Shown here: one piece after another, positions 6,991 to 42,250 of the stretch
How positions within the stretch are numbered: the stretch's first letter is position 1
Layout: every line of letters begins with the position of its first letter
Source: Blastocatellia bacterium
Lineage (GTDB): Bacteria; Acidobacteriota; Blastocatellia; UBA7656; JADIYM01
Direction: 5' to 3'
Length of the DNA: 64,000 nt
NCBI GenBank assembly: GCA_016705245.1
Contig: JADIYM010000025.1
Coordinates: 2,577 to 66,576 of the forward strand
Translations under genes and position numbers: made by a program
The notes under the pieces: generated by a model
What the model was told of the DNA's origin: nothing
Databases searched by the model: none
Seen by the model: only the letters and a program-made list of their open reading frames with translations

Positions 6991-7099
6991 GGGAAATCCT
7001 CCTGCAAATTCGAAGACAAGTGTCTTCTTGCTGCTTCGCCGGTCCGCGGGGCTTCCCCTCAGGGCGCTCTCCGTCAGTCGCTCTCCGGCGGGTGCGCTA

Positions 7100-10404: not shown

Positions 10405-10409
10405 GAATC

Positions 10410-11762: not shown

Positions 11763-11774
11763 GACGAACGGACT

Positions 11775-21252: not shown

Positions 21253-21698
21253 GGCTTCCGAACCAGGTGCCTGAGCGCAGCGAGAATCGTCGCGAACGAA
21301 TCGCCGCCGGCCTCGGTCGGCGTCCCGTGCTCACCATCGACGATCTCGAAGCGCCGGTCGAGTCCGAGCGATCGGGCCCGCTCGAGTGTCGCTGCGAGGG
21401 CAGCGCGGCGCGTTGCCCCGCCTGGAGCGTCGGGAACGTCGAGCGAGTCTCCGGCAGTCCATCGAACCACGAGCTGCGGCAGCCGATTGACCGTTCGCGT
21501 GATCTCGGGATCGGCCAGCAGCATAACTGCAAGGAAGACGAAAACTCCGCGCAGTGCCGCAATGCCCGCACGAACCCGCGTATCGCGAACTGCGGTCCGC
21601 CGCCACGCCCACCAGGCCGCGCCGACCGCCGCGACCGGAGCTGCCGCCAACAGCACCCACCCGGCCTCGCCGTGAGCCGACAGCGAAAATGCCGTCAT
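21222..21698 (-). CDS. Hypothetical membrane protein (2 predicted TM)
   Basis: 158-aa ORF with two N-terminal hydrophobic helices. Its 3' end overlaps the start of 19486..21252 in a different frame, so the two may form one frameshifted gene. Confidence 0.4.
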   Translation of the reverse strand: MTAFSLSAHGEAGWVLLAAAPVAAVGAAWWAWRRTAVRDTRVRAGIAALRGVFVFLAVMLLADPEITRTVNRLPQLVVRWTAGDSLDVPDAPGGATRRAALAATLERARSLGLDRRFEIVDGEHGTPTEAGGDSFATILAALRHLVRKPCFLRDASLP

Positions 21699-24154
21699 CG
21701 CGGCCGTTCCGCCAGCCGCCGGAAATACGCCTCGGCGCGACCACCGTCAGATGTGCGTCCGGCCGACGGGCCGCGGACAGCGGCTCGCGAATCGAGCAGC
21801 GCCGCAAGCTGCGAGGCCGCGCCGGCGAGTTCTTCGGTCACGGCCGTGAGCGCCGATCTCGCACGGCCCGTCTCGCCGGTGACCAGCGCATCGTGGAGGC
21901 GTCGCGCTTCGCCCGACGATCCCGTGAGGCGGCCCGCCACCTCGACGAGCGCCGGGTCGAAGCCGGTCTCGAGCCCGAGCAGCGCCCGCGCGATCTCGGC
22001 CGACCGCACTGCCACAGCTTCCGCGCGCTCCGCGTGCACCTGCGACGGTGATTCGGTGTCGATCGTCGATGCAATTTCGATCTGCCGGACGAGTGCGGCG
22101 AGTTGTTCCCGCATCGCGCGCTCGGCGGGAGAAAGTCCCGCGACCGCCATTCGCTCGACGCGGCCGCGGATCTCGGCCAGCTCGCCGGCGTAGCGCCGCT
22201 TCAGGTCGATTGGCTTCGTCGTCACGCGGACTCGCGAGAAATATCGCGTCGCCTTCTGCGCTTTCTTCAGAAACTCGAGCGCGCGGCGCTCGTGCGGGAT
22301 CGCCTCGGCCGTATCGGCGACGCCGAGAGCGCGTTCCGCGTCCCACATCGCGCGAATCGACACGAGCAGGTCGCGAAAGGGAGTGTTCGCCGATTCCGTC
22401 TCGTCGCCGGGTCCGTGCGTGTGCGACTCGGAACGGGCGGCGGCTGCGGCGTCGTGGGCTTCCTCGGCCTCCGCTGTCGGTTCCTCTGCGCCGTGCTCCT
22501 CGTCGTCTTCGTGGCCGGCGGCGTGGGCGGCCTCCTTCTGTGCCTCGGTGACGGCCTTCTCGTTCGTGAACGTCACGGGCGGACCGTGATCGTGCTGCCC
22601 GTGAATCTCGATGAACTGATCGAAGCTCTCCTTGAACTCGCGCTGCTCGCGGGCAAGGTTCGTCGCCTCGATCTGGTACTGCCGCGCCTGAGTCTTCTCG
22701 CGGCGTGCGTGCAGCTTGAGCGTCTTCTCGAGGATCATCCGCTGCGACACGAGGTAGCGCTGGAAGTCTTCGGGCTGCAGATCAGCAAGTGTGATCGGCG
22801 CGGGAGGATCCGGAACCGAGACCTCGAAGACGAGGCTCTCGGACATTCCGGTCGACGGGCCGGTCACGGTGTTCCTGTCCTGCGCCTCGACGTGGAAGAC
22901 GAGCGACGACCCCGGCACGATGCCGAGCCGCTCGAGGTCCAATCGGCACCGACCGCGGACTGCGCCCGAGTCGGTCCGGCCCACGGTTTGGACGGGAAGC
23001 TCACCGCGGGTGAACTCTGCCGCGTCTCCTTCACCGATGCTCCGGATCCACGAGAGTTTCATCGGTCCGAGACCGAGGTCGTCGGCGGCCTCGAACTCGA
23101 CGTCGAGCGTCCCCGGCCGGGCCTTCGCTTCGACGAGAATGTCGGCGGCAGGTTTCGTGATGCGGACGTCCGGCGCGCGGTCCTCGATGATGCGCATGGG
23201 CAGCAGGAACACGCGCCTTTCGCCGCGTGAGTCGGTCGGCCGCACGGCGATGCTGCCGGGCTCTCGCGCGACGAATGACGACGCGAGCGCGCCCCGGTCG
23301 TCGGGCTGCAGCACGGCGTCGGGCATCGCCCCGACCGTGAGCGTGGCCGCCACGGCCGGATGACCCGGAACCAGGACGACGTCGACTTGCGAGCCCGCGA
23401 GCGCGGCGATCTCGGACGGGCCGTCGAAATGCTCGGCGGCTCGACCGGCATAGGACGGTGGCGTGACCACAACTGAAAAACTGTCGGGAGCATCGACAAA
23501 ATGCGCGCCTTCGGGCACCGGTTCAGTGTTCGGGCCGCCGGGAGCGACCTCGAACCGTGGTGGCACGAGCCTGCCAGTCAGATCGTAGCCGGCAAGTGGC
23601 GACGTCAGCGCGGCGAGCCCGAGGATGCAGACGGCCGCCGACAAACGAAGCGCTCCGGCAAGTGGCGCTTCGGCGCGTGGGTCGACCGACTCGGCCTCGG
23701 CCGCCGCCGCAGTCTCGAGGCGATTGGCGACGTACGCGGGCGCCGCGCCCTGGGCGCGAAGCTCGAAGTAGCTCGCGAGAGCGTTCACCGACCGTCCGGC
23801 GTGGGCGGCTCGCCAACGCGCGACACCCGTCATCGTCCAGTCTCCGCGCGAGAGGGACCGTACACAGGCGACGACGGCAGCAGCACCGAGGCAACCGGCC
23901 GCCGCCAGTCCGGCCACGCGCCAGCCCGCCGGAATTCCGATGATCGCGTCGACGAGGATGAGCAGAATGACCGAGGCCGCGGCCGCGAACGCCCACGGGC
24001 CGGCGGATTCGACGACCGTCCGGGTCGCGAGCCGCGTCCGCAACTGTGTGAGCCGTCTGAGGTTCATCGCAGGTTCCCGTACTGATACGAATCCCGTCGC
24101 GATAGTTTCACCGGCACTTCGTACAACTTTCGGCGACCGGTAGGGCACAAACAA
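21695..24154 (-). CDS. Large hypothetical membrane-anchored protein (N-terminal TM, acidic/His-rich central linker, C-terminal coiled region)
   Basis: 819-aa ORF with N-terminal TM helices and a Glu/His/Ala-rich segment (HGQHDHGPP...EDDEEHGAEEPTAEAEEAHD). Possibly a DUF4175-like Bat-cluster protein, but I am unsure. Confidence 0.5.
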   Translation of the reverse strand: MFVPYRSPKVVRSAGETIATGFVSVREPAMNLRRLTQLRTRLATRTVVESAGPWAFAAAASVILLILVDAIIGIPAGWRVAGLAAAGCLGAAAVVACVRSLSRGDWTMTGVARWRAAHAGRSVNALASYFELRAQGAAPAYVANRLETAAAAEAESVDPRAEAPLAGALRLSAAVCILGLAALTSPLAGYDLTGRLVPPRFEVAPGGPNTEPVPEGAHFVDAPDSFSVVVTPPSYAGRAAEHFDGPSEIAALAGSQVDVVLVPGHPAVAATLTVGAMPDAVLQPDDRGALASSFVAREPGSIAVRPTDSRGERRVFLLPMRIIEDRAPDVRITKPAADILVEAKARPGTLDVEFEAADDLGLGPMKLSWIRSIGEGDAAEFTRGELPVQTVGRTDSGAVRGRCRLDLERLGIVPGSSLVFHVEAQDRNTVTGPSTGMSESLVFEVSVPDPPAPITLADLQPEDFQRYLVSQRMILEKTLKLHARREKTQARQYQIEATNLAREQREFKESFDQFIEIHGQHDHGPPVTFTNEKAVTEAQKEAAHAAGHEDDEEHGAEEPTAEAEEAHDAAAAARSESHTHGPGDETESANTPFRDLLVSIRAMWDAERALGVADTAEAIPHERRALEFLKKAQKATRYFSRVRVTTKPIDLKRRYAGELAEIRGRVERMAVAGLSPAERAMREQLAALVRQIEIASTIDTESPSQVHAERAEAVAVRSAEIARALLGLETGFDPALVEVAGRLTGSSGEARRLHDALVTGETGRARSALTAVTEELAGAASQLAALLDSRAAVRGPSAGRTSDGGRAEAYFRRLAERPR

Positions 24155-24777: not shown

Positions 24778-25381
24778 GAAAACGGGGGAAAGAACACCAG
24801 CACGTGATTCCGAGGCCGCAGCTGACGAACCAACGGATCACAGATTGAGACAGATCCCACCAGTAGAGCGCGGCGACGACGAGGGCGTGCTCGATCCGAC
24901 CTTCAGCGACTAGCGAGCGAATGCGAGAGACGGGTTCGAGCACGAGCCGCAGTTCTTCGTTGCCATCGGGTGACGGTTCGGCAACCTGCTCGACGTCAAG
25001 CGCGAGAAACGTGAAGCACCGATTCGACTGAATCGCAGGATTCGGATCCACGGTGCCGATGTGTTGCCACCGTTCGGTCGCGTAGCCCGTCTCCTCGAGC
25101 AGTTCGCGACGGCCGGCGTGCTCGGGTGTCGCGTCCTCGGCGTCGATCATTCCGCCTGGAATCTCGAGCGTCGTCCGGCGCACGCCGTGGCGGTACTGCT
25201 CCACGAGCACCATGCGGTCGTCGCGAGTGATGGCGACGACGTTGACCCAGTCGCTCGCGTCGAGAACGTAGAACTCACCCTCCCGTCCGGTTTCCTGCGA
25301 GGTCCGTCTGTGCGCGTGTAGCTTGAAGATCGGGGTGTCCGCGAGCGTGCGCGTCGCGAGGTGCTTCCAGTGCTTGATCAT
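24698..25381 (-). CDS. NUDIX hydrolase
   Basis: Nudix box GGMIDAEDATPEHAGRRELLEETG. The C-terminal roughly 25 codons are encoded by the P3 palindrome. Confidence 0.8.
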   Translation of the reverse strand: MIKHWKHLATRTLADTPIFKLHAHRRTSQETGREGEFYVLDASDWVNVVAITRDDRMVLVEQYRHGVRRTTLEIPGGMIDAEDATPEHAGRRELLEETGYATERWQHIGTVDPNPAIQSNRCFTFLALDVEQVAEPSPDGNEELRLVLEPVSRIRSLVAEGRIEHALVVAALYWWDLSQSVIRWFVSCGLGITCWCSFPRFRAASGSERPTDGRTVPITSVLPQRRV

Positions 25382-27245
25382 GACGGCAATGCTACGCCAT
25401 CAGGCTCTTCTATGCCCTCCGGCTGCCGCCGCCTGGTGCCAGCGATTGCCAACTCCGCCAGTGCCGCGATCAGTGCGATTGCGAGCAGGATCCGCCAGAA
25501 TGGCCACCGCTGTTCCGAAGCCGCGAGCGTGGCCTCAGAGCCGATTCCCGCCGGTCCCGCGGCGCGCGCGATTGCGACCGTTTCTTCCGGCGAGAGCTGT
25601 CCGGGCTCGGATTCAACCGCTGCAACGTTGACCGCCTCGAACCGGTCGTGGTCGCCGCTTCGCACCCGAAGGAACCCGGGCGCATCGAGGCGCATGGATC
25701 CGCCCGCACCGGGCGCCAGTCGGCGGCCGCCAAGCTCGACGATCGCCTCCGCTGGCAATCCCTCGATGGTGTCGCCGACATCGCGTGCGGTCACTTTCGA
25801 ACCTCCTGCCAGAAGCCGGACGAGATCCGGAAAGGCGCCGTCATAGACCAGCCGGCCGGACTGCGGTGACGCGTCGAAACCCGCGGTCGTGACCACGCCC
25901 GCGTCCAACCGCCGGCGGACGACCACCGAACGCCCGGCGCCGTCCAGCACGACCGTTTCGTCACCGATTTCGGAGACCACCGGTCGAACGAGCACCGGTG
26001 CGGCGCGCAGCGCCACGGCCGCAGGAGCCTCTGGCGATGCGGCGAGGAATAGACTCACCGATTCAGGTTCGTCGGTTGCGACGACCGGGAAGCCCTGAGG
26101 GGAGTTGCCGGCCGACGCGGTGAACACGAGCGCGGTTCCGCCGGCGCGAACCCAGGCGTCGAGCGCTGGGGACGCGCCCGATACGTCGAGCGCACGCGAG
26201 CTCACGATGGCGACCGATGCCCCTGCGAGCGCGGCGGCGTCGACACGCGGCACGACCCGGACGAGCTTCGCGCCAAAATTGACTTCGGAAGCAGCCGCGA
26301 GAAACGGACCGCCGGCGCCAGGGTCGCACACGACGACCGGACCGCGCGCACCGCAACGACGCCGTATCGCACGTCGTCGAGGTCGAACCCGTCGGGGGCG
26401 GTAACGCGAGCCGTCCAGGTCTCGCCGCTGCGACCAACGAGGATGCCGTCGCCCGCCGCACCGTCCACGAGCGGGACGGCGATCCGCGCCACTTCCCGGC
26501 CAGCGTCGCCCGATCGCACGAGCGCGCACGCGAGGCGCTCGCCATTTTCGTCGACGTCCACCTGGGTATCGGCGACGAACGCGTTCCCGAAGGCGTTTTC
26601 GACTCGAATCGTCTCGAGCGAGGCAGTTGATTCGGCCTCGACGCCGGGAGTCCACGGACCATTCGATCGCTGGAAGTCCGAGATGAGAACGATGCGTCTC
26701 TCAGAGCGCGGGGTACTCGCGAGGTGGCGATCGGCCAACGCGACGGCCGCGGCTGGCTGTCCGGCGGCTCCACCTGGCGCGTAGGACGCGAGCGCCGCCA
26801 GCGCGTCCTCGCGGGCGAGATCCCGACCGAGCCACACGACGTCCCGGTCGAATTGGGCAACGCAGGCGAGGTCGCGATCGCCGAGACGTCCGATGACTTC
26901 ACGCGCAGCAACGAGCGCGGCATCCCGGGTCTCGGTACGCCGCATGCTGGCCGAGGCATCAAGCAGCAGGACCGTCGCCGAGCCGGGCGGCACTGCGCCT
27001 CCGGTCCACACCGGATGCGCCGCAGCCAGCGCAATCAGGGCGATGACTGCGATTCGCAGAGCAAGCAGCCAGCGCCGGTTCGGAGGCGTGAGGCGGCGAA
27101 CGAGCGAGGGCGTCTCGCGAAGGAATCTCAGGCTGGGGAAGTCGAGGCGTCGCGACCTCGCGCGCCGCAGCATATGGATGACAACAGGCGCCGCGATCAG
27201 GCCGAGCGCCGCGAGCGCAAGCGGTGCTAGAAACGCGAAGGGCAT
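25378..27245 (-). CDS. BatA-like VWA-domain membrane protein, apparent frameshift near 26.34 kb
   Basis: N-terminal BatA motif (LALAALGLIAAPVVIHMLRRARSRRLDFPSLRFL), a TM helix and a VWA MIDAS motif (LLLDASASM). The two overlapping ORFs 26202..27245 and 25378..26655 are each sensible on opposite sides of about 26340. Confidence 0.6.
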
Positions 27246-28171: not shown

Positions 28172-28270
28172 GGGAAGAGTTGACAGGATTGCAGGATTTT
28201 CAGGATTGATAGGAAAGTGAGTAATTGTGTTAATCCTGATAATCCTGCAATCCTGTCTACTCTCCTCTCC
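28172..28270. repeat. Palindromic repeat family P4 (CAGGATT-rich), copy 1
   Basis: ttgacaggattgcaggattttcaggattga...aatcctgataatcctgcaatcctgtc. It contains the TAG stop (gtctac on the minus strand) of the methyltransferase gene. An inverted copy is at 34026-34121. Confidence 0.8.
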
Positions 28271-28931
28271 GGGTCATCCAAAAGACCAGGCCGGGGAGTG
28301 TGGCGAAGCGGTCGAGGTGTGTCTCGCGGATGCGGTCGATCGTAAAGGAGCCTGCGAAGACATCCTCGACCTCGCGCGTGCGGCGGTCGCGCTCGTCCGG
28401 ATCGCCAATCGGCACACCGTCGCGGAACGCCTTCACGAACAGCAGGAAACGCGCGCCCGGAGCGGCGGCGATGGCCACGTTCCTGGCGAAAGACTCACGG
28501 TCTCGCGTGTCGAGCTGATGAAAACAGCCGCGGTCGATGAAGACGCCGAAACGACGGTCCGGAAGCGGTTCGGCGCACACGTCGGCCGCCACAAATTCGA
28601 GCTGGCCGGGAACTTCGCCGTGCGTCTTTCGGGCCAACGCAATGGCGGACGGCGCGATATCGACTCCAACAGTCGGGAATCCGCGGCTGGCCAACCACGC
28701 GGCGACATCGCCACGGCCGCAACCGACGTCGATGGCTGGCGATCCTGCGGCGAACCAACCGCCATCGACGGCCTGGACGATATCGGCCGAGACATCACGG
28801 TCAAGCCAGGGGCCGCCCGGGTCGTCCTGCTTCCAGCGAAGCTCCCAGTACGCGCGCACAAATCGGCGCCGCATGCCAGTGGGAAGCAGTGGCACCAATA
28901 GTCGCCTCAGAGCGTGAGCGGCCTTGAGCAT
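28257..28931 (-). CDS. Class I SAM-dependent methyltransferase
   Basis: Motif I VGCGRGDVAAWLA and a methyltransferase fold of the right length. Confidence 0.7.
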   Translation of the reverse strand: MLKAAHALRRLLVPLLPTGMRRRFVRAYWELRWKQDDPGGPWLDRDVSADIVQAVDGGWFAAGSPAIDVGCGRGDVAAWLASRGFPTVGVDIAPSAIALARKTHGEVPGQLEFVAADVCAEPLPDRRFGVFIDRGCFHQLDTRDRESFARNVAIAAAPGARFLLFVKAFRDGVPIGDPDERDRRTREVEDVFAGSFTIDRIRETHLDRFATLPGLVFWMTRRGE

Positions 28932-29020: not shown

Positions 29021-31545
29021 ATGTCAGCGGTAACCGCAATTGGATCGATCTCGCAGTGCTTCGCGGCTCGAGTCTCGGAGGGACCGTCGCGGCCAGCCGT
29101 TCGTGCCGGCGACTGCGAATTCTCTTATGCCGATCTGGACGCGCGCTCAAACGGACTCGCGCGCGAGCTTCAGGCGCGGCGCCTGGTCGCTGGTGACCGC
29201 GTCGCCGTGCGCCTGGCACGGACGGACCTGCTCGTTCCGACGATTCTCGGGATATTGAAGGCAGGCTGCGTCTACGTCCCGCTGGACCCCACGTATCCGG
29301 AAGCGCGCACCCGCTCGATACTCGACGACTGCAGCGCTGCGCTCGTGATCTCGGACGATGGAGACGGGCTCGATCCCAACGCGGTTTCGCCGTCGAACGA
29401 GTCGCCGACTGCAATCGTCGAACCGGACGCACTCGCCTGCATCGTGTACACCTCGGGATCGACCGGAACGCCAAAAGGCGTCATGCAGACGCACGCGTAG
29501 CTGGTCGCGTTCGTTCGGAACTGCATCGCGCCCTTCGGCGTCTCGAGCGGCGACAGGCTCTCGATGCTTTACTCATACAGCTTCGCCGCCGCCAACATGG
29601 ACGTCTTCGGTGCGTTGCTCAGCGGCGCAACGGTCTGCTTCTATCCGCTTCGCGAGCGAGGCGTCGCCGGACTCGCCGCGTGGATCGCCGGGGAACGCGT
29701 CTCGATTCTTCATACCATACCGACCGTGTTTCGCCAGCTCATCGCGAGCCTCGAGCAGGGGGATTCACTTGCGACCGTTCGTGCCGTCGATCTCGGTGGC
29801 GAGCCCGTGCTCTCGGTCGACGTCGACCGATTTCGCGAGCATTTTCCGGAAACGGCACTGCTCGTCAACCACTACGCCGCGACCGAACTGAGTGTCATCG
29901 CCCAGATGCCGATTAGCGCCTCGACACACGTCGGACCGGGCGCGGTCCCAGCCGGCTACGCTGCACACGGCGTCGAGATCCGCATCGTCGACGCCGACGG
30001 CGCGGATGTTCCCTCGGGCACGGAAGGCGAGATCGTGGCGCGAAGCGTGCACATGAGCGCGGGGTACTGGAACCAGCCGGAATTGACGGCGCGCAACTTT
30101 GCGACTGACCCGGCGAGCGGCGGACTTCGAATCTACCGAACCGGCGATCTTGGGCGACTGGCGCCCGACGGATGCCTCCAGCATCTGGGCCGCGTGGACG
30201 ATCGCATCAAGATCCGGGGCCAGAGTGTCGAAGTTGCCGAGGTCGAAAACGCGCTCGTCGCCTTCGACGAAATTGCCGAGGCCGTCGTCACGGCGCGTCC
30301 GTCGCCGGCCGGTTCGACGAGGCTTGTCGCCTTCGTGGTCTCGCGCGCCGGGGCATTCCCGACGGCCGAGTCGATCAGGCAACGACTCGCCGTGACACTT
30401 CCCGAATCCATGATCCCGTCGGCGGTTGTCCTGCTCGACCGGCTCCCTTTGACGCCGAGCGGAAAGGTCGACCGCGCCGCCCTCCCCGAGCCTGACCAGG
30501 CGCGCCCCACGCTCGAGGCTGTATTCGTCGAGCCGCGGGATGACCTCGAATCCACGCTCTGTCGCATGTGGGAGGAAATCACGGGAGTGAAGCCCGTCGG
30601 TGTCGACGACGACTTCTTTGCTCTCGGGGGCGACTCGCTAGGCGCGGTCCACCTCTTTGTTCGAATCGAGCGGTTGACAGGGCGACGGCTCCCGCTCTCC
30701 AGCATCATGCGGGCACCGACCGTTGCCAGAATGGCAGAGCTCGTGCGAACGGACGCGGGCTACTCCTCCGCATGGCACCTCGCCACGCTCGGGGCCCGAG
30801 GGACCGAACCGCCGATTTTCTTCGTTCACGGCCTGCGCGGCGGCGTCGTGTTCCTGCGTGGGCTCGTTGAAGCGCTCGGGCCGGACCAGCCGAGTTTTGC
30901 GTTCGAGGCCGACGGCCGATTCGAGGGTCCGCTCGACGCGTCGAGCATCGAAGACCTTGCCGCGGCCTATGTGGACCTGCTGCGCGGCGTTCGTCCGCAA
31001 GGCCCTACCACCTCTGCGGTTATTCGGCCGGCGGCCTCATCGCGTTCGAGATTGCCCGACAGCTCTCCGCCGAAGGCGAGGAGGTCGCGTTTCTCGGACT
31101 CATAGACACCTACGCACCGGTCGCTGGTCGTCGCGTGTCGCCGCTTCAGAAGAAACTGAACCACGCCAGGGTGCTCCGAGCGCTTCCGCGGAGCGAGCGC
31201 GTCGCCTTCGCGCGTCGAACGGCGGACCGCGTCCTTCGCCGTGAGCAGAAGCGTGCGGGAGGCCCCGACGTCGACGGGCCCCTACGTCGCGCACTGCTCG
31301 AGCTGCTCGAGGCGTACGGGCCCGACGGCGGTTATCGCGGACACATCGACCTGTTCCGGCCATCGATTCCATTTCTCGGCGCGCGGATGGACCGTGCGCT
31401 CGGTTGGGACCGGTGCGCGGTCGCAAGCTACACCGTTCACGACGTGCCGGGCGATCATCGAACGGTGTTCGAGGCCGGCAACGCGCAGGCGCTTGCGAAG
31501 TCGATTTCGCGGAAGCTGAATCGGACCGAAGCCGGTGCGGACTAG
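29021..31545 (+). pseudogene. Standalone NRPS-like module (adenylation - PCP - thioesterase), disrupted by an in-frame TAG at 29498 and a frameshift near 31000
   Basis: A-domain cores (YTSGSTGTPKGV; YRTGDLGR; GRVDDRIKIRGQSVE), PCP core (FFALGGDSL) and TE GxSxG (GYSAGG, readable only after a frame change near 31000). The ORFs 29021..29500 and 29564..31105 share one frame and are separated only by a TAG. Confidence 0.7.
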
Positions 31546-31554
31546 GCGCCGAGC

Positions 31555-32829
31555 ATGACCGAGATTCGATTGAAATACGGCGACGGGGAGCTGACAGGCA
31601 GGGCGCCGGACGGCGTTTTTGCAGGCTCGATCGGTCCGGAAACGTCCGAGCCTGATGTATCTGCGGACGAAATCGTCCGTCGCGCGCTCGACTCGCCGAT
31701 CGGGTCGCCGCCTCTCGTCGACCTCGCCAGCGGCGCGCGGACGGCATCCATCCTCATACCCGGCAAGACACGCGTGGCGGCGACGCGAACCTACGTTCAG
31801 GCGCTCGTCGACGAGCTCGAACGGGCCGGTGTGCCACGCGACGGCATCGAGGTCTTCCTTGCCACGGGCACTCACGAGCACCACTTGGAGTGCGACGTCT
31901 CAAGCCTGCTTGGCGACGAAACCGCGGCGCGTGTTCGGACGGTCTTTCACGATTGCTTCGACGAGAGCGGCCTCGAGCAACTCGGCACGACGAGTTTCGG
32001 GACACCGGTGCTCGTCAGTCGCCGCGTGCTCGATTCCGACGTGCGCATCCTGACGGGCCGGATCGTTCCGCATTACTTCGCCGGATTCAGCGGTGGACGC
32101 AAGGCGCTTTTGCCCGGCGTCGCCGGATTTCGCACGATCAAGGCCAACCACCGGCTGACGCTCGACCCCGTGCGGGGGCTGCACCCGAACGCGCGTCCGT
32201 GCATCCTGGACGGCAACCCTATCCACCTCGACATGGTGGAGGGGATGCGGATGGCGGGACCGATGTTCTGTCTCAACACGCTGCTCGACACCTCGCACCG
32301 CCTTGTCGACGCCGTCGCGGGCGACGCCGAGGCCGCACACCTCGAAGGCAGCCGCCGCGCCGATCGGCTGCACCGCACGCGACTCGACGCGCCAGTCGAC
32401 GCCGTCATCACGAGCGCCGGCGGCAGTCCATACGACTGCAACTTCATGCAGTCGCTCAAGGCCGTCATGAACGTTCGCGACGCCGTGCGTCCGGATGGCG
32501 CGATCCTCTGGGTCGCCGAGTGCCCGTTCGGCATCGATCCCGATTTCCTGCGGTGGGCGGCAATCGAGTCGGACGCCGAGCTCGAGTCCGCCGTGCGCGA
32601 GCGTTACAACCTGAAGGGGCACAACACGCTGATGCTCCGGCACCTCACGCGGAAGGCCGATGTCGCGCTCTGCAGCAGCCTTCCCGAGGCGGACGTCCGG
32701 GCGATGGGTTTCCAACCGGTCTCGTCGCTCGGGGAGGGGCTCAACTGGCTTCGGGACCGGCTCGGGCGGGCTTCGTACCTCGTCGCCCCGCACGCAAACG
32801 TCACTTGCGCTACGGTGGGCACTGATTGA
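31555..32829 (+). CDS. LarA-like (lactate racemase family, DUF2088 N-domain) protein
   Basis: Conserved LarA-family segments, including PHYFAGFSGGRKALLPG (which in LarA carries the Lys that binds the NPN cofactor) and His-rich GTHEHH. About 424 aa, typical for the family. Confidence 0.65.
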   Translation: MTEIRLKYGDGELTGRAPDGVFAGSIGPETSEPDVSADEIVRRALDSPIGSPPLVDLASGARTASILIPGKTRVAATRTYVQALVDELERAGVPRDGIEVFLATGTHEHHLECDVSSLLGDETAARVRTVFHDCFDESGLEQLGTTSFGTPVLVSRRVLDSDVRILTGRIVPHYFAGFSGGRKALLPGVAGFRTIKANHRLTLDPVRGLHPNARPCILDGNPIHLDMVEGMRMAGPMFCLNTLLDTSHRLVDAVAGDAEAAHLEGSRRADRLHRTRLDAPVDAVITSAGGSPYDCNFMQSLKAVMNVRDAVRPDGAILWVAECPFGIDPDFLRWAAIESDAELESAVRERYNLKGHNTLMLRHLTRKADVALCSSLPEADVRAMGFQPVSSLGEGLNWLRDRLGRASYLVAPHANVTCATVGTD

Positions 32830-34037
32830 CGAATATGCGCAAGCGGGTCTTCCACGTCTGCTCGGGCTGCGGCGCGACGTTTCCCCACGCATTCACGACG
32901 TTCTGCGACCGTTGCGGAGCGATGATCGATGTCGAATACGACCTCGACCGCGTGGTGCTGCACGATTCGGAGGACGCACTGGTGCGGTACTTCGACCTGC
33001 TGCCGCTCGAATCGGACGGACACCTCGTCTCGTATGGCGGCGGGCCGACACCGTGCCGTCACGCCGAGCGCCTCGGTGGCGAGCTCGGGCTGCCGTGGCT
33101 CTTCATCAAGGACGAAACGGTGCTGCCGACCGGGAGCACGAAGGATCGCATGGCCGCCGTCGTGCTTTCGTTCCTGCGTGAATGCGGGATTGCCGAGTTC
33201 TGCACGTCGTCGACGGGAAACAGCTCGACGGCGCTCGCCAACCTCATCGGCCAGTGTTCCGGCACGCGGATGTACCTCTTCTCGGGCGACGAATTCCAGC
33301 ACCGCGTCAACTTCGGCGAGTCGGAGCAGGTGGTGCACTTCGTCATGCGGGGTGCCACATTTGTCGAAGCCTTCGAATACGCGGCCGAGTTCGCCCGCCA
33401 GCGAGGGATTGTCTCGGAACGCGGATTCTTCAACCCGGCGCGGCGCGAGGGTCTGAAGCTCGCGTTTCTCGAAGCCGTCGAGCAGGTGCCGCGCCCGATC
33501 GACTGGTATGTGCAGGCGGTCTCGAGCGCGATGGGCGTTTACGGAACGTACAAGGGCGCGCGCGAGCTCGTCGCTCTTCGGCGCATCGCGCGCCCGCCGC
33601 GGCTGTTGTGCGTTCAGCAGGAGACCTGCAGCCCGATGGCGCGGGCTTTCGAGGATGGCAGCGAGGCGATCCTGCCGCACCACATCGTTCCGCGGCCGCA
33701 CGGCATCGCCTCGGCGATCCTGCGCGGAAATCCTTCGCGCGTCTACCCGATCGTTCGGCGGATCGTCATCGAGAGCGAGGGCGGTTTCGCGACTGTCTCG
33801 GAGACCGAAATCCGCGAGGCACGCCGGATGGCCGAGGAGCTCGAGGGGCTGTCGCTGTGCTTCAGCTCCGCGGCGGCGCTTGCCGGAATGGCGAAGCTCG
33901 CGCGGCGGGGCGGGATCGCTGCGAATCAGACGGTCCTCGTCAACCTGACGGGCCGCGACCGCGACGCGGCAGTGCAGTGTCATTCTGCCAGCTGGCTGAG
34001 ACGCTCGGGTGACACATGGATTCAGGAGGGAGACTAG
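32826..34037 (+). CDS. Threonine-synthase-like PLP-dependent enzyme with an N-terminal Cys4 zinc ribbon
   Basis: PLP lysine motif PTGSTKDRMA (threonine synthase fold type II) and an N-terminal CSGC...CDRC. The start overlaps the LarA-like stop by 4 nt. The TAG stop lies inside the P4 repeat. Confidence 0.65.
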   Translation: MTNMRKRVFHVCSGCGATFPHAFTTFCDRCGAMIDVEYDLDRVVLHDSEDALVRYFDLLPLESDGHLVSYGGGPTPCRHAERLGGELGLPWLFIKDETVLPTGSTKDRMAAVVLSFLRECGIAEFCTSSTGNSSTALANLIGQCSGTRMYLFSGDEFQHRVNFGESEQVVHFVMRGATFVEAFEYAAEFARQRGIVSERGFFNPARREGLKLAFLEAVEQVPRPIDWYVQAVSSAMGVYGTYKGARELVALRRIARPPRLLCVQQETCSPMARAFEDGSEAILPHHIVPRPHGIASAILRGNPSRVYPIVRRIVIESEGGFATVSETEIREARRMAEELEGLSLCFSSAAALAGMAKLARRGGIAANQTVLVNLTGRDRDAAVQCHSASWLRRSGDTWIQEGD

Positions 34038-34121
34038 ACAGGATTACCGGATTTTCAGGATTGACAGGAGAGGTTCCTGTACATCCTGGGAATCCTGTAA
34101 TCCTGTCAACTCTCCTCCCCC
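34026..34121. repeat. Palindromic repeat family P4, copy 2 (inverted relative to copy 1)
   Basis: agacaggattaccggattttcaggattgacagg...gggaatcctgtaatcctgtcaactctcc. Confidence 0.8.
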
Positions 34122-34127
34122 ATTGCG

Positions 34128-35717
34128 GTGGGACGAGTGTTGCCGATAGCCTGCGGAACTTCACGGATGGACACGCCAGCACAGCCTTCTCCAGCGACCT
34201 TCGGACACGTCGCGCGTCAGGCCTCGATACGCTTCTCGGGGCTCGCCTTCGACAAGGTTCTCGGGTACGTCTTCGCGCTGTTCGTCGCGAAGACGTACGG
34301 TTCGACTGCGTTCGGACTCTACATCTTTGGTGTCGGGCTCTTCGAAATCTCGTACGCCCTCACCGAAGCCGGCTTCGAGCGAGCGACGATTCGAGCCATC
34401 GCGAGTGCCCAGGCGCGAGGCGTGACCGCCGAGATTCCCCGGATCGTCCGTACGAGCCTCGCCTTCACGTTCCCGCTTGGCCTCGCGGTCATGTTGATCG
34501 TCATACTCGGCGCACCGTGGTTCTCGGAGTTGCTTGGTCGGCCGGATCTTGCTTTGTTTCTTCAACTTGCAGCCATCGCGATTCCCCTGTCGCTGATGGC
34601 CGACAACCACCTCTGGGCGATGGAGGCCATCGGCCGCCAACGGTACTCCGTGATCGTGCGAATGGTGGTCGAGCCGATCGTGAAGATCACGATAGCGGCG
34701 ACTCTGTTTCTCACGATCGAGATGGTGTCGCGATCGGCGCCGCTCGCTATTGCATATGCCGGGGGAGTTGCGTCGAGTGCCGTGCTCGCGTGGATGTTCT
34801 ATCGGCGCGAGGTGCTGCGGGATGTGACGGGCACGGCCCACGAGCGCCACCTTTCGGGCCTCCTGCGCGTTGCCGTGCCGGCGTGTGGCCTCTCGCTTCT
34901 GCAGCGACTTCTCTCCTGGGCGTCGATTTTCATCGTGTTCACGTTCGTGACATCGGAAGCGACGACGCACTTCGCCGTCGCGGTCCGAACCGCGTTGCTG
35001 ACGATGATGGTGGCTTCGGCATTCGACGCGGCATTTCGACCGTCGATCGCGGCAGCGCTCGCACTCAACCGTCAGGAAGACATTGCCGAGCCGTTCCAGC
35101 GCGTCGCCCGCACGGTGTTGACTATCGTCCTGCCAGCGGTCGCAATGCTCGTGGCTTTTCCGCACCGCGTGATGCCGGTCGTCGGCGATCAGTTCGCGGT
35201 GGCGGCTCCTGTTGTCGCGGTCATCGCGATTGGAACGCTTGCGAGTTTCCTCGCGGGTCCGTCCGCCTCGGCGCTGACGATGGCGGGACACGCTCGCGTG
35301 CCTTTCTGGAACGGACTCGCGGGAGGAGCCATCGGCGTCATCATCGGACTCGGCCTGGTTCGGCGATTCGGCATGCTCGGCGTCGGGATCGGGCAACTAG
35401 TGTCGCTGATCGTCGCGAATACGTTGCACGCTATCGCGGCGAAGAGACTGCTCGGCGTCGTCTCTATCGGACGTGGACACGCCCGTCCGATAGCAGCCGC
35501 GATAGTCGGAGTCGCCGCCGGATATCTCGTCGATGGATTGGCGGACGCCAACAAATACATCGTGCTCGTCGAGGTCGGGGCGGCCGTCGTGCTGGCATAC
35601 GGCGCCACACTCCTCATTGTCGGTCTGCCGCCGGAGGATGTGAAGATGGTTCGCGCGGTGATCGCGCGGATAGCCGGGAAAGGGAACGGGAGAGGCAACG
35701 CGGATCTGGCGGATTAG
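34128..35717 (+). CDS. Polytopic membrane exporter of the MOP/Wzx flippase type (polysaccharide biosynthesis protein family)
   Basis: About 14 predicted TM helices, 529 aa, and an N-terminal cytoplasmic stretch followed by repeated hydrophobic segments typical of Wzx/MurJ-like proteins. Confidence 0.55.
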   Translation: MGRVLPIACGTSRMDTPAQPSPATFGHVARQASIRFSGLAFDKVLGYVFALFVAKTYGSTAFGLYIFGVGLFEISYALTEAGFERATIRAIASAQARGVTAEIPRIVRTSLAFTFPLGLAVMLIVILGAPWFSELLGRPDLALFLQLAAIAIPLSLMADNHLWAMEAIGRQRYSVIVRMVVEPIVKITIAATLFLTIEMVSRSAPLAIAYAGGVASSAVLAWMFYRREVLRDVTGTAHERHLSGLLRVAVPACGLSLLQRLLSWASIFIVFTFVTSEATTHFAVAVRTALLTMMVASAFDAAFRPSIAAALALNRQEDIAEPFQRVARTVLTIVLPAVAMLVAFPHRVMPVVGDQFAVAAPVVAVIAIGTLASFLAGPSASALTMAGHARVPFWNGLAGGAIGVIIGLGLVRRFGMLGVGIGQLVSLIVANTLHAIAAKRLLGVVSIGRGHARPIAAAIVGVAAGYLVDGLADANKYIVLVEVGAAVVLAYGATLLIVGLPPEDVKMVRAVIARIAGKGNGRGNADLAD

Positions 35718-35739
35718 GCGGATCTCGCGAGTATGAGCT

Positions 35740-35815
35740 CCGTGTCTCTGCGTCTCGTGTGACCTGCGAAGCGTCTCAGAGCGCTTCGCACAGAGCCACA
35801 GAGACTCAGGGCAGG
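35740..35815. repeat. Palindromic repeat family P1, copy 2
   Basis: ctgcgaagcgtctcagagcgcttcgcacagagccacagagactcag, between the convergent flippase (+) and moxR (-). Confidence 0.75.
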
Positions 35816-35822
35816 AGGGTCC

Positions 35823-36833
35823 CTACTCGAGCGGCACGTCCGCCAGCACTTGGTCGACGATCGTGTCGGCGGTGACACCCTCGGCCTCCGCGTGGAAGTT
35901 AGGTACGACGCGGTGTCGCAGCACCGGGTGCGCGATCCTGTGAATGTCGTCGAATGTCACGGCGTAACGGCCTTCGATGAGCGCGTTCGCCTTGGCGCCG
36001 AGCAGCAGGGCCTGCCCGGCTCGGGGACCAGCCCCCCAGGCGACCCATTCACGTGCGGCAGCCACGGCATCATCGGTCCCCGGCCTGGTGGCTCGGGCGA
36101 TCCGCGCCGCATACCGAACGACGTTCGACGCCGCGACTACGTCGCGCACGGCGCGCTGCGTTGCGAGGATCCTTGCCGCGTCCGCAACCGGCCGGATCTC
36201 GTCGTCGCGCGATGCCGTTGTCGCCGAAAGGATTCGCTCTTCCTCGTCGAGCGACGGGTACTCGACCGTCACGTTGAAGAGGAACCGGTCGAGTTCCGCT
36301 TCCGGCAGTTTGTACGTACCTTCCTGCTCGATCGGGTTCTGCGTCGCCATTACGAAGAACGGCTCGTCGAGCGTGTAGCGATGTCCGGCAACCGTCACCT
36401 GCCGTTCCTGCATGGCCTCGAGCAGCGCTGCCTGGGTCTTCGGGGGGGTGCGGTTTATCTCGTCGGCCAGCAGCACCTGGCAGAACACGGGTCCCGGAAT
36501 AAATCGCGTGACGCGGCGACCGGTCGACGTGTCCTCCTCGAGCACTTCCGTGCCGAGAATGTCTCCGGGCATCAGGTCGGGTGTGAACTGAACCCGGTTG
36601 AACGCAAGGTCAAGCGACTGCGCCAGTGACTTGATCAGCAATGTCTTAGCGAGGCCCGGAACGCCACGCACGAGGACGTGTCCGCCTACGAGCAGGGCCA
36701 CGAGGACCTGCCGGACAACGTCGAGCTGACCGATGACGGCGCGGCCGATCGAGGCCTCGAGGGTTGCGACGAGTTCCGGCGCGCGCTCGGCGGCTTCGGC
36801 GCGGCGGTTCTCGGAGATTTCCGCTGGTCTCAT
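35823..36833 (-). CDS. MoxR-like AAA+ ATPase
   Basis: Walker A GVPGLAKT plus the MoxR hallmark (VIGQLDVVRQVLVALLVGGHVLVRGVPGLAKTLL) and the sensor region. Confidence 0.85.
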   Translation of the reverse strand: MRPAEISENRRAEAAERAPELVATLEASIGRAVIGQLDVVRQVLVALLVGGHVLVRGVPGLAKTLLIKSLAQSLDLAFNRVQFTPDLMPGDILGTEVLEEDTSTGRRVTRFIPGPVFCQVLLADEINRTPPKTQAALLEAMQERQVTVAGHRYTLDEPFFVMATQNPIEQEGTYKLPEAELDRFLFNVTVEYPSLDEEERILSATTASRDDEIRPVADAARILATQRAVRDVVAASNVVRYAARIARATRPGTDDAVAAAREWVAWGAGPRAGQALLLGAKANALIEGRYAVTFDDIHRIAHPVLRHRVVPNFHAEAEGVTADTIVDQVLADVPLE

Positions 36834-36851
36834 CGGATGTACGGACGACGG

Positions 36852-38143
36852 TTATCGCTCGATCTGGTCGAGCAACGAGCCGGTCTTGCTGTTCGGATTC
36901 CCGGCTTCTTCCTTGCCCGGCCGCGTCACTGGCCGAACATCTGGAGGAGGTCCGGAGCGCATCCCGGGACGCGCTGGCGCCGCCGGTCGAGGCGGCGGAG
37001 TCTGCGGAGGCACCTGCGCTGAAGGATCGCGCAGATCCGACATCGACAGTCTCAGGTTGTGCTTGTTCGTGGCGTATGCGAGGCCGTCCTCGAACGTCAC
37101 GAGGCCTTCGCGGACCATCTTTTCGAGAACCGTGTCGAAGTCCTGCATCCCGTCGATGTCTCCGGCGCGCATCGCCTCGATGAGCGAGCGCTTTTCGGCC
37201 TCGCCCTTCTCGATGTACTCGCGCGTGCGCATCGTCGAGCGCAGGATCTCGACGGCGGGGATGCGGCCCTTGCCGTCGGCCCGCGGCAGAAGCCGCTGCG
37301 ACACGATGTACCGGAAGCTCGTGGACAGTCGTTGGCGGATGCTCTGCTCGTGGGTTTTCGGGAAAATGCCGATGATGCGGTCGACAGTCTTGGCGGCGTC
37401 GGTCGTGTGCAGTGTCGAGAAGACGAGGTGGCCCGTCTCGGCCGCATCGAGGGCAACCTCGACGGTCTCGAGGTCGCGCATCTCGCCCACGAGAATGACC
37501 TTGGGCGCCTGCCGCAGCGCCGGAAGTTGTCCGTATCCGTGTGCAACTCCCGTTGATGAACGGTCGACAGCTTGTGCGGATGCAGGAATTCGATCGGATC
37601 CTCGATCGTGACGATGTGGTATGCGTAGCGCTGGTTGATCTCGTCGACGATCGCAGCAAGCGTCGAAGACTTGCCCGACCCGGTCGGCCCGGTCACGAGC
37701 ACGATGCCGTTCTTCAAGTCGACGACGTCCTTGAGGTGTTCGGGAAGATTGAGGTCGCGGAAGCTCGGCACGCGGTTGGGAATCACTCGCATGACGATCG
37801 CTATCGTGCCGCGCTGCTTGAACACGTTGACGCGAAACCGCGACATGCCGGGCAACGAGTAGCTGACATCCGCCGATCCGGTGCGCTCGAGGCTCTCGGC
37901 CGCGGCTTCGTTGCCTGCAACGAGCACCTTTGCGATGGCAGCGGTGTGTTGCGGAAGCAATCGGTCGAGTCCGGGGAGCGGAATCGGATGCAGCTTCCCG
38001 ATGTGCTCGACCTGCGGCGGTCGCCCCGGCGAGAAGATCAGGTCGCTGACGTTGTCCGCATGCGAGAGCATGGCCTTCAGAATTTCGTGGAAATTCTGGA
38101 CCGTGCCACTTGCCGGGTTACCTGTGGGGGGGTTCTGGGACAT
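36852..38143 (-). CDS. pilT: Type IV pilus retraction ATPase PilT (twitching motility), apparent 1-nt frameshift near 37.5 kb
   Basis: Walker A GPTGSGKSST and the PilT motif GHLVFSTLHT. The N-terminal part is ORF 37097..38143 and the C-terminal part is ORF 36852..37490. They join at HTDTD-SF...ALRQAPKVILVGEMRD if one base is inserted or deleted. Confidence 0.75.
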
Positions 38144-41407: not shown

Positions 41408-41730
41408 GAGACCCAGAACCCAGAGCGCAGCGAGGGGCCGACCTCAGCATCGGTAGCCGTTGAAGAGCCGGATGCCGTCAAACCAGACCATCGCCGACCC
41501 AGAACCCAGAGCGCAGCGAGGGGCCGACCTCAGCATCGGTAGCCGTTGAAGAGCCGGATGCCGTCAAACCAGACCATCGCCGACCCAGAACCCAGAGCGC
41601 AGCGAGGGGCCGACCTCAGCATCGGTAGCCGTTGAAGAGCCGGATGCCGTCAAACCAGACCATCGCCGACCCAGAACCCCGAGCGCAGCGAGGGGCCGAC
41701 CCTGGCATCGGTATCAGCCGGAGAACCGGA
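41408..41730. repeat. Tandem direct repeat, 86-bp unit x about 3.7
   Basis: Unit cccagaacccagagcgcagcgaggggccgacctcagcatcggtagccgttgaagagccggatgccgtcaaaccagaccatcgccga, repeated head-to-tail with near-perfect identity. The last copy degenerates. Confidence 0.9.
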
Positions 41731-41835: not shown

Positions 41836-42250
41836 GTATTGGTCTTCGAACTAAGCCGAGGGCACGTCGAATGCTGCCAGTCGCAGTGGATCTATTGGTC
41901 TTTGAGAGAAGCCACTCCCGTCTGCGAAGCTCGTAGATATTGGTCTTCGAGAGAAATCGGGTTTCGGATGGGGCCAATTCATGCCTTTGAACTCGGCAAG
42001 ATACCTATTGGACTTCGAGAGAAGCCTTATAGGGACTCGAGAGAAGTACCTATTGGAACCTGAGAGAAATACTCGCAGATCTCCCAAGGGACCGAGTCAC
42101 GGGTTTGGAGAGAAGAACTATCGGGTTCGTGAAGAGGAATGTATCGGATTCATGAATAAGAGGTATCGGTCACGGAAAGAACGGGAATCGGGTTCTGGAA
42201 GAAACTGAATTGGGTGCCGGGAGAACAGATATCGGTCCCGGAAAGAAATC
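41836..42250. promoter_or_regulatory. Iteron array (about 13 copies, 22-23 bp spacing, consensus TATYGGNYNNSRGAGAA) plus an AT-rich stretch: putative oriV-type replication origin
   Basis: Repeats TATTGGTCTTCGAGAGAA, TATTGGACTTCGAGAGAAG, TATCGGTCACGGAAAGAA and others. Local GC is far below the window average. AT-rich 42255-42330. Immediately upstream of a Rep initiator gene. Confidence 0.7.

Follow-up and report, generated by a model that had tools for sequence, protein, structure and literature searches.

Published reactions of LarA-family enzymes are confined to racemising or epimerising free 2-hydroxy acids, for the most part in catabolic pathways (PMC13524815, PMC11770544). In L. plantarum LarA, His108 and His174 are catalytic, Lys184 is the thioamide tether, His200 is a nickel ligand and Arg75 binds the nickel-pincer (NPN) cofactor (PMC11770544). 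The window analysed here, a stretch of 64,000 nucleotides from a Blastocatellia bacterium, encodes at 31555–32829 on the forward strand a LarA-family 2-hydroxy-acid racemase/epimerase homologue of the nickel-pincer type. Like LarA, Mar2, the 2-hydroxyglutarate racemases and LarAH10, the protein combines the Pfam domains Lar_N (3e-54) and LarA_C (1e-6) with invariant active-site residues. Its best match among solved structures is the malate racemase Mar2 (6d6z, 8e-62), with LarA itself (5huq) at 1e-39, which places it within the LarA superfamily. R73, H107, H173, K183, H199, Q299 and K302, the equivalents of LarA Arg75, His108, His174, Lys184, His200, Gln295 and Lys298, are invariant in 28 members of the subfamily. 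The catalytic histidine pair is kept as H107 and H173, and the NPN-binding residues as K183 (within GGRK), H199 (within ANH) and R73. An earlier note on this DNA had made the LarA identity dependent on such His and Lys residues, and with all cofactor and catalytic positions retained the identity stands.

The enzyme nonetheless belongs to an unnamed subfamily. It scores under every named NCBIfam LarAH cut-off (LarAH6 is best with 334 bits against 500, and LarAH10 reaches 321 against 540) and so falls in none of the LAR, MAR (LarAH5/6), HGR, LarAH10 HHR or GntE groups. Its specificity positions (LarA1 175/176/358/359) read Y-F-H-N, which matches no published pattern, whereas the characterised groups carry F-F-W-E/Q (LAR), Y-F-H/Q-T (HGR) or x-x-H/Q-K (MAR). 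A second difference from the superfamily is genomic. A ThrC-like gene stands next wherever the sequence continues, usually followed by an adenylating enzyme. The earlier statement that the window holds no larB, larC or larE is correct, as no such domain occurs in any predicted gene of the window. Taking larBCE as the commonest neighbours of ordinary LarA loci yielded no probes, since these genes are not commonly adjacent there.

The ThrC-like gene (32835–34037, forward strand, with an alternative TTG start at 32826) encodes a fold-type-II PLP enzyme with an N-terminal four-Cys zinc ribbon (Pfam PALP, 9e-47), identical to MBK6316740.1. Its best PDB matches are ThrC and cysteate synthase. With ThrC of the PRK08197 type and cysteate synthase it shares the PALP domain, the T-K-D-R PLP lysine, the S-T-G-N loop and the four-Cys ribbon. 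The lysine of PTGSTKDR aligns with the PLP lysine of ThrC and K103 is invariant; the four cysteines (CxxC...CxxC), the PLP lysine (TKDR) and STGNSS are unchanged across 28 ThrC-like members. The PALP domain and PLP lysine identify a fold-type-II enzyme, but its scores lie below the equivalog cut-offs (PRK08197, 147 bits against 303; TIGR00260, 58 against 167; cysteate_syn, 127 against 325). Unlike ThrC and cysteate synthase, it represents a separate subfamily, whose genes sit in LarA/adenylation cassettes and not among thr or coenzyme M genes. Neither tailoring enzyme has a characterised homologue above a family cut-off.

Upstream of this pair lies a gene with the A-T-TE order, without a C domain, that is familiar from stand-alone A-T-TE NRPS-like enzymes and non-amino-acid loading modules. 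It spans 29021–31545 on the forward strand from an ATG at 29021 and is split in the public record into three proteins (MBK6316736.1, MBK6316737.1 and MBK6316738.1). The first fragment (29021–29500) covers the N-terminal half of the A domain, is deposited as a separate 159-aa protein (MBK6316736.1) and ends at a TAG at 29498–29500 in the frame of the initiating ATG. The second (29501–31005) holds the remaining A domain with A4 FAAANMD (29582–29602) and A10 SGKVDR (30458–30475), the T domain with GGDSLG (30626–30643) and the start of the TE, and ends at a 1-bp deletion at 31003. The third (31006–31545) carries the thioesterase (Pfam Thioesterase profile 67–225) with GYSAGG (31018–31035) and GDH (31450–31464), and closes with an ordinary TAG stop. 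Its +1 frame bears out the frameshift near 31000 that the earlier note had described together with the in-frame TAG. The same note's reading of the three proteins as an A-T-TE enzyme, a LarA homologue and a zinc-ribbon ThrC-like PLP enzyme is upheld by the Pfam, NCBIfam and PDB comparisons.

The Pfam AMP-binding profile aligns from position 2 to 185 before the TAG and resumes from 188 to 384 behind it, the pattern of one domain cut in two. The TAG replaces Ser160, for which a relative of about 98% identity uses TCG, and therefore reflects a C-to-A change. A Gln codon, CAG, had been proposed as the ancestral state and is ruled out, as all close homologues encode Ser at this position. The frameshift is one missing C in a C-run at 31003 (window, CAAGGCCCTACC; relative of about 98% identity, CAAGGCCCCTACC), where CCC at 31001–31003 stands in place of an in-frame CCCC. 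Repairing both lesions restores a protein of 841 residues, the length of intact homologues. Whether an intact version exists among close relatives, as the earlier note asked, is answered by eight full-length versions of 91–98% identity, seven from the same cluster of at least 90% identity plus P0002. Ser160 and the extra C are present in all eight and also in one partial version.

Frame-breaking lesions also affect at least four further genes of the window: a 737-aa gene with a frameshift at about 21280, a BatA-family gene of a BatA/MoxR-type operon (about 26349), a T2SSE-like ATPase with a 16-bp deletion at 37523 and a CHAT-domain gene (about 2440) with its Pfam profile split into 2–155 and 156–288. 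The accession series of the source MAG is, we presume, that of a long-read activated-sludge MAG project. Compared with the A-T-TE gene of relative L001 (98.6% identical), the window gene shows 38 synonymous and about 14 non-synonymous differences, of which 17 and 6, respectively, lie downstream of the frameshift in the corrected frame, and only four residues are unique to the window protein. L001 itself has an intact A-T-TE gene and a frameshifted PALP gene, the reverse of the window. With at least four neighbours similarly broken, no further decay and a relative broken elsewhere in the cassette, the change of TCG to TAG at Ser160 and the missing C at 31003 are probably consensus errors of an error-prone metagenome assembly. 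The stop-creating C-to-A substitution and the 16-bp deletion are not classic homopolymer errors, which weighs against the error reading.

It is rather unlikely that the strain has lately lost its A-T-TE gene by nonsense mutation and frameshift, leaving a fresh pseudogene cluster. The deposited sequence does contain both lesions, the NCBI annotation divides the gene into three CDS, a second independent lesion in the gene would fit selection relaxed by the first, and a change unique to the window, Y168C, affects a conserved position eight codons past the stop. Such a loss sits poorly with unrelated neighbours broken within the same 64 kb, with intact LarA-like, PLP and flippase genes downstream, with substitutions that remain mainly synonymous and with the reciprocal break in the L001 assembly. 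If the lesions are real, they are very recent. Of the two origins left open in the earlier note, assembly error has thus become the likelier and fresh inactivation the less likely, given the other broken genes, the intact relatives and the break in L001. A third possibility, that amber read-through or reassignment together with programmed ribosomal frameshifting yields a full-length enzyme, is supported only by both frame segments still being coding. It has a negligible probability and is rejected on comparative evidence. Neither feature occurs in any homologue (all encode Ser, and the relative of about 98% identity has the in-frame CCCC), TAG is the normal stop of the very same gene, and the window contains no suppressor tRNA, tRNA gene or Rfam element. 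Consensus error remains the preferred explanation, and the A-T-TE gene, which all other members of the population carry unbroken, is most likely intact in the natural population. At about one frame-breaking lesion per 10 kb in the window, pseudogene calls from this assembly are untrustworthy without reads.

In its repaired form, the A-T-TE enzyme has the features of its stand-alone counterparts. The A domain contains A3 TSGSTGTPKG, A7 YRTGD and A10 PSGKVDR (Lys517) and scores 338 bits against the TIGR01733 cut-off of 317, and the carrier serine (GGDSLG) and the thioesterase serine and histidine (GYSAGG, GDH) are present. The deposited frame is broken, by the TAG at 29498 and by a −1 frameshift at 31003; the orthologues are uninterrupted. 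The specificity code, whose extraction the earlier note had proposed as a check, was obtained by alignment to GrsA (1AMU) and reads AAMHDGHVIK in the window, compared with SAMHDGHVxK or SAMQEGRVAK in cassettes of other phyla. At the position of Asp235, which binds the substrate alpha-amino group in alpha-amino-acid A domains, the window has Ala, and every cassette-linked NRPS-type A domain with the [S/A]AM..G.V.K code has Ser or Ala. This loss, which the earlier note does not mention, is shared with A domains for acids without an alpha-amino group, of which it is a mark. Known keto- or hydroxy-acid A domains have hydrophobic or aromatic pockets, whereas in the cassette pocket position 299 is acidic and position 322 basic, and the two residues are conserved together in cassette A domains. 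A further distinction from stand-alone A-T-TE enzymes and NRPS loading modules is the presence of LarA-like and ThrC-like building-block genes, an arrangement for which we found no precedent.

The three genes are closely packed on the same strand, with 9 bp between the A-T-TE and LarA-like genes and about 5 bp between the LarA-like and ThrC-like genes. Two further cassette members are missing from the earlier note. A TPMT-family SAM methyltransferase (28257–28931, reverse strand; Pfam TPMT, Methyltransf_25 and Methyltransf_11) is divergent from the A-T-TE gene, and a MOP-superfamily flippase/exporter (Wzx/SpoVB-like, Polysacc_synt; 34167–35717, forward strand) is the true next gene after the ThrC-like gene. 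A 619-aa ORF at 34016–35875 overlapping the flippase is in the wrong frame and is not a gene. Genes were called by codon log-odds segmentation trained on homology-confirmed genes, a GC3 filter having been dropped as too unspecific. Scans of the window for promoters and terminators gave background levels only, and Rfam and tRNA scans returned no element and no tRNA gene.

Conservation of the pair was assessed across 185,579 species-representative genomes. The LarA subfamily (48–86% identity) occurs in 19 of them under 11 different lineage labels, and in 18 of these 19 loci the ThrC-like gene (53–78% identity) lies immediately downstream; in the nineteenth the contig ends at this point. The ThrC-like gene is missing from all 61 loci of other LarA families. 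An adenylating enzyme is next in most subfamily loci, either as A-T-TE, as A-T feeding a multi-module NRPS or as a stand-alone ligase, and two LarA/PLP loci have no adenylating gene within reach. The PLP subfamily was found without a LarA-like gene in two of three extra contexts examined, in one of which a DAO-type FAD oxidoreductase takes the place of the LarA-like gene. The order of the genes differs from phylum to phylum, an argument for selection on their linkage, and the earlier idea that the cassette genes act together gains strong support from this cross-phylum grouping. The LarA-subfamily and ThrC-like core, usually with an adenylating enzyme, is a real conserved biosynthetic module across many bacterial phyla. 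All-against-all ORF clustering around the pair revealed no fourth widely shared gene beyond the LarA, PLP and adenylating enzymes. A B12-radical-SAM gene is common only to three loci of the Planctomycetota group, and DUF3326, the DAO gene and unknowns of 508 and 540 residues are lineage-specific neighbours. TPMT homologues (44–57% identity) lie beside the cassette, at differing positions, in other Blastocatellia, a Planctomycetaceae MAG, an unclassified bacterium and a Nitrospirae MAG. Literature searches returned no description of LarA with NRPS or ThrC, nor of the whole module.

These distributions also weigh on two other readings of the cassette. The LarA-like and ThrC-like genes could be ordinary primary or catabolic genes that just happen to lie beside an NRPS-like gene, for instance one for a malate or 2-hydroxyglutarate racemase and one for a paralogue of threonine synthase, as their best family matches (malate racemase and threonine synthase) and the two loci without a nearby adenylating gene would allow. 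We regard this as improbable, since both proteins are far under the cut-offs of all named families, the pair is adjacent in every subfamily locus with downstream sequence and at none of the 61 other LarA loci, the link to adenylating enzymes persists despite gene-order shuffling across phyla, and the A domains tied to the pair have in common an unusual code without Asp235. A slightly stronger but still unlikely candidate is DltA/DltC-like decoration of a cell-envelope polymer or lipid-linked glycan with an unusual acid, in place of a diffusible molecule. As in D-alanylation by DltA/DltC, an adenylating enzyme and a carrier would handle a small acid, and in Blastocatellia a MOP/Wzx/SpoVB-type flippase gene reads in the same direction as the cassette and is conserved alongside it. 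Two further lineages have the cassette directly beside genes for polysaccharide export (Wzz, Poly_export, Wzt ABC), and DltA models match the A domain at 2e-62. The flippase, however, belongs to the cassette only within this one class, the A-T at the polysaccharide-adjacent loci runs on into a multi-module NRPS, and similarity to DltA is generic among A domains. Moreover, A, T and TE are here fused, DltB and DltD are absent and the pocket differs from the Ala type.

The model that we favour starts from what the sequences show, namely the gene structure, the integrity of domains and active sites, the statistics of co-localisation and an atypical pocket in the A domain. The PLP enzyme may act on a phosphorylated amino acid drawn from primary metabolism, by beta- or gamma-replacement or by a reaction of the threonine-synthase type, and the LarA-like enzyme with a nickel-pincer cofactor would set the C2 configuration of a 2-hydroxy-acid partner or of the product. 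The acid so formed would lack an alpha-amino group where its carboxyl is activated, and farther down its chain it probably bears an amine together with an acidic group. The A domain would adenylate this acid and load it onto the carrier domain, from which the TE may release, oligomerise or transfer it, and in Blastocatellia the TPMT-like methyltransferase may modify the product and the MOP flippase export it. We infer substrate, step order and product from sequence comparisons, which suggest that the product is likely a zwitterionic 2-hydroxy (or 2-alkoxy) acid on a carrier protein. Taken jointly, one 841-aa A-T-TE gene, lesions arising as consensus errors and membership of a conserved biosynthetic module with this mechanism form the best explanation, which we hold with moderate confidence. 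The narrower proposal, that the LarA-like/ThrC-like pair is a two-enzyme route to a new zwitterionic 2-hydroxy (or 2-alkoxy) acid loaded by dedicated A domains, is put forward only tentatively.

The core of the module comprises only three genes and is therefore small enough for a heterologous-expression test. A LarA subfamily coupled to a ThrC-like enzyme, and usually to an NRPS loader with a non-amino-acid pocket, points to a new building block and to a new role for the nickel-pincer cofactor in uncultured bacteria of soil, sludge and sediment. If the two-enzyme route is true, a nickel-pincer enzyme would for the first time have been recruited into non-ribosomal or secondary metabolism, and a PLP enzyme of the threonine-synthase fold would have gained a new reaction type, one that is conserved from Acidobacteriota to Planctomycetota.

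A ThrC-like gene lies directly 3' of the LarA-like gene at every locus of the window's LarA subfamily with downstream sequence, and at none of 61 loci from other LarA families. An adenylating gene comes next at most subfamily loci. The subfamily is rare, occurring in only 19 of the 185,579 species-representative genomes scanned. All 19 are MAGs, labelled Blastocatellia, Terriglobia, Gemmatimonadales, delta-proteobacteria/Myxococcota/Polyangiaceae, Methylomirabilota, Planctomycetota/Brocadiaceae, Lentisphaerales and Nitrospirae, and outside the subfamily there is a sharp drop in identity, with other LarA families reaching 38% at most. Blastocatellia relatives with LarA-like identities of 98%, 86% and about 75% carry the same cassette of methyltransferase, A-T-TE, LarA-like, PLP and flippase genes. 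Remoter members (50–65% identity) have rearranged cassettes, with the order LarA, methyltransferase, PLP, A-T-TE in a Planctomycetaceae genome and methyltransferase, LarA, PLP, A-T-TE in an unclassified bacterium. At two further loci, L003 and L090, LarA, PLP and A-T run into a large NRPS with C-A(MT)-T and C-A-T modules; these genes (L003:263-6468 and L090:1-5339) directly adjoin genes for polysaccharide chain length and export (Wzz/GNVR, Poly_export and ABC2/Wzt). A distinct cassette variant is found in the Planctomycetota/Brocadiaceae MAG loci L016, L017 and L018, where a B12-binding radical-SAM gene (57–61% identity among the three) sits directly 5' of the LarA/ThrC-like pair and a stand-alone AMP ligase follows. 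Given linkage kept across these lineages, the functional coupling proposed in the earlier note stands. Pairing is not strict in the reverse direction, as three further contexts of the PLP subfamily comprise one with LarA, one with a DAO-type oxidoreductase instead and one with neither. On the metagenome contig L088 (5904-8263), the gene in front of a ThrC-like member (62% identity) encodes not a LarA-like protein but a DAO-family FAD oxidoreductase, which may be a non-nickel functional replacement.

The region at 29021-34037 belongs to a window with a G+C content of about 65%. Its A-T-TE gene starts at ATG 29021 on the forward strand and the frame reads TSGSTGTPKGVMQTHA, a TAG at 29498-29500, and then LVAFVRN. 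The Pfam AMP-binding profile matches on both sides of the TAG (profile positions 2-185 upstream and 188-384 downstream), which identifies one interrupted adenylation domain. AMP-binding_C and PP-binding follow in the frame of the post-stop A domain, which degenerates past RGVRPQGP, and the thioesterase part (YHLCGYSAGG) resumes in the +1 frame. The DNA at the frameshift is CAAGGCCCTACC, and addition of one C yields QGPYHLCGYSAGG; repair of both lesions gives a protein of 841 aa. Translation, Pfam matches and DNA agree with the coordinates and description in the earlier note. In the public record the gene is divided into three proteins, MBK6316736.1 (159 aa), MBK6316737.1 (513 aa) and MBK6316738.1 (136 aa, IPF53_21235), identical to the three ORFs of the window.

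Intact versions exist in close relatives. A protein search with the repaired query recovered full-length homologues of about 841 aa at 98%, 91%, 78% and down to about 50% identity, the first of which (P0001) belongs to the Blastocatellia MAG GCA_016704725.1. Every close homologue carries Ser where the window has the stop and keeps GPYHLCGYSAGG unbroken. In the cluster at 90% identity or more, seven sequences from other assemblies are intact at 841 aa, and one partial sequence likewise has Ser160. At the DNA level L001, the locus of the 98% relative, has TCG opposite the TAG and GGCCCCT opposite GGCCCT at the frameshift. This makes the nonsense change a C-to-A substitution in a Ser codon, and not the C-to-T change in a CAG (Gln) codon suggested previously.

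Whether the gene is freshly inactivated or misassembled had been left undecided, and comparison with L001 favours the latter. Over 22.5 kb the two align at 98.56% identity with 35 gap openings, and the A-T-TE gene is one of several window genes frame-broken relative to L001. The others, all on the reverse strand, are a 737-aa gene (19489-21713, break near 21280), a 621-aa gene of the BatA family within a BatA/DUF58/MoxR cluster (25381-27245, break near 26349) and a 435-aa T2SSE-like ATPase (36855-38143), whose Pfam T2SSE profile is split by the deletion of 16 bp at 37523. Beyond the region common to the window and L001, a TPR-CHAT gene (3-2993, forward strand) is also fragmented. Its CHAT profile is split near 2440 between two frames (2-155 and 156-288), its TPR repeats run through an in-frame stop at 741-743 and the frame changes again near 1508, lesions of the same kind as those of the A-T-TE gene. 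Reciprocally, the L001 PLP gene (L001:13810-15020) is frameshifted by one missing base at window-equivalent position 33596, where the window is intact, and is called at only 284 aa compared with 403–406 aa elsewhere. The A-T-TE gene differs from that of L001 by 38 synonymous and about 14 non-synonymous changes, synonymous changes predominate 3' of the frameshift too once the frame is corrected, and in a comparison of nine population sequences only four residues are peculiar to the window. Breakage of at least five of about 55 genes, reciprocal breaks in two near-identical assemblies and no other decay together form a consensus-error signature. The accession series of the source MAG is presumably that of a long-read activated-sludge MAG project. 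The TAG and frameshift are probably metagenome-assembly consensus errors; the disruption itself is ordinary and likely an artefact. The alternative is a real but extremely recent pair of mutations creating a true pseudogene, which we consider unlikely. Recoding was rejected because TAG is the gene's own terminator, neither feature occurs in any homologue, and scans of the window found no tRNA gene or Rfam element.

The specificity pocket of the repaired A domain is unusual. In amino-acid-activating A domains, Asp235 anchors the alpha-amino group. Cassette-linked A domains were aligned to GrsA-PheA, using a GrsA fragment identical to 1AMU residues 184-528, which gave the ten-residue code AAMHDGHVIK for the window and SAMHDGHVxK or SAMQEGRVAK in other phyla. 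In domains with these codes position 235 is always Ser or Ala and never Asp, and positions 299 (acidic, D/E) and 322 (basic, H/R) are conserved as a pair. This pattern suggests that the substrate is probably not an alpha-amino acid at its activated end and likely carries cationic and anionic groups further along the chain. Two loci have a different code and five have acyl-CoA-ligase-type enzymes, so downstream use of the LarA/PLP product varies.

The LarA-like gene (31555-32829) matches Lar_N at 3e-54 and, among solved structures, malate racemase Mar2 best (8e-62). The conserved His/Lys cofactor residues, which the earlier note had singled out as the point to check, are all retained: equivalents of L. 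plantarum LarA Arg75, His108, His174, Lys184, His200, Gln295 and Lys298 are invariant in a 28-member subfamily alignment (roles of the first five from PMC11770544). The protein scores well under the cut-off of each named LarAH family, and at the four published specificity positions it has Y-F-H-N, which differs from the LAR, HGR, MAR and GntE patterns. As noted earlier, the window lacks larB, larC and larE, with no such domain among its predicted genes. A gene for a 757-aa membrane protein that combines a high-affinity nickel-transporter domain (NicO) with a DsbD_2-like region lies beside a DUF4331 gene (7103-9373 and 5782-7029, reverse strand), about 20 kb upstream of the LarA homologue, and a functional link to this nickel-type homologue is possible.

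The ThrC/cysteate-synthase-like PLP enzyme (32835-34037) has an invariant four-Cys ribbon, PLP lysine and STGN loop, and likewise scores far under the ThrC and cysteate synthase family cut-offs. The true next gene encodes a MOP/Wzx/SpoVB-type (Polysacc_synt) flippase (34167-35717, forward strand); the longest ORF there (34016-35875, forward strand, 619 aa) is in the wrong frame and has no Pfam match. Upstream of the A-T-TE gene a TPMT-family methyltransferase (28257-28931) is divergently encoded. Elsewhere in the window, a complete efflux operon of TetR regulator, HlyD-type adaptor, AcrB-type RND pump and outer-membrane factor, then an MFS transporter and ThyX (9766-16735, forward strand), is ordinary-looking and apparently unrelated to the cassette. 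An 86-bp tandem repeat (41410-41713, 3.5 copies, 98% matches), short 21–23-bp repeats (42111-42247) and a gene with RPA/TrfA replication-initiator domains (42430-43869, forward strand) suggest a plasmid-like or integrated element with an iteron-type origin.

We propose that the PLP enzyme would perform a replacement or ThrC-type reaction on O-phosphoserine or O-phosphohomoserine from primary metabolism, and that the two-His LarA-like enzyme would racemise or epimerise a 2-hydroxy acid, either partner or product, at its C2 carbinol. One carboxyl of the resulting acid would have a 2-hydroxy or 2-alkoxy group next to it, with an amino-acid-like head in another part of the molecule. Among the candidates are acids of the 3-hydroxyaspartate or 4-hydroxyglutamate type and ethers that join a D-hydroxy acid to serine or homoserine. 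Such an acid would be loaded by the A domain, and the thioesterase would hydrolyse, oligomerise or transfer it. Methylation recurs in three forms, as a TPMT-like methyltransferase, a B12-radical-SAM enzyme and an NRPS-embedded MT domain. A role of the product in envelope decoration is possible, given the flippase and, in two lineages, the polysaccharide-export neighbours. A 2026 paper still limits LarA-family reactions to 2-hydroxy-acid racemisation and epimerisation, and a full-text literature search found no paper tying LarA-family enzymes to NRPS or ThrC-like enzymes. By sequence, the LarA, ThrC-fold PLP and NRPS-like A-T-TE parts fall in known superfamilies and in no characterised subfamily, and together form a predicted NRPS-like cluster with an unprecedented LarA-like and ThrC-like building-block pair. 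With strong comparative support and a chemistry predicted from sequence, the cassette is a good lead for genome mining.
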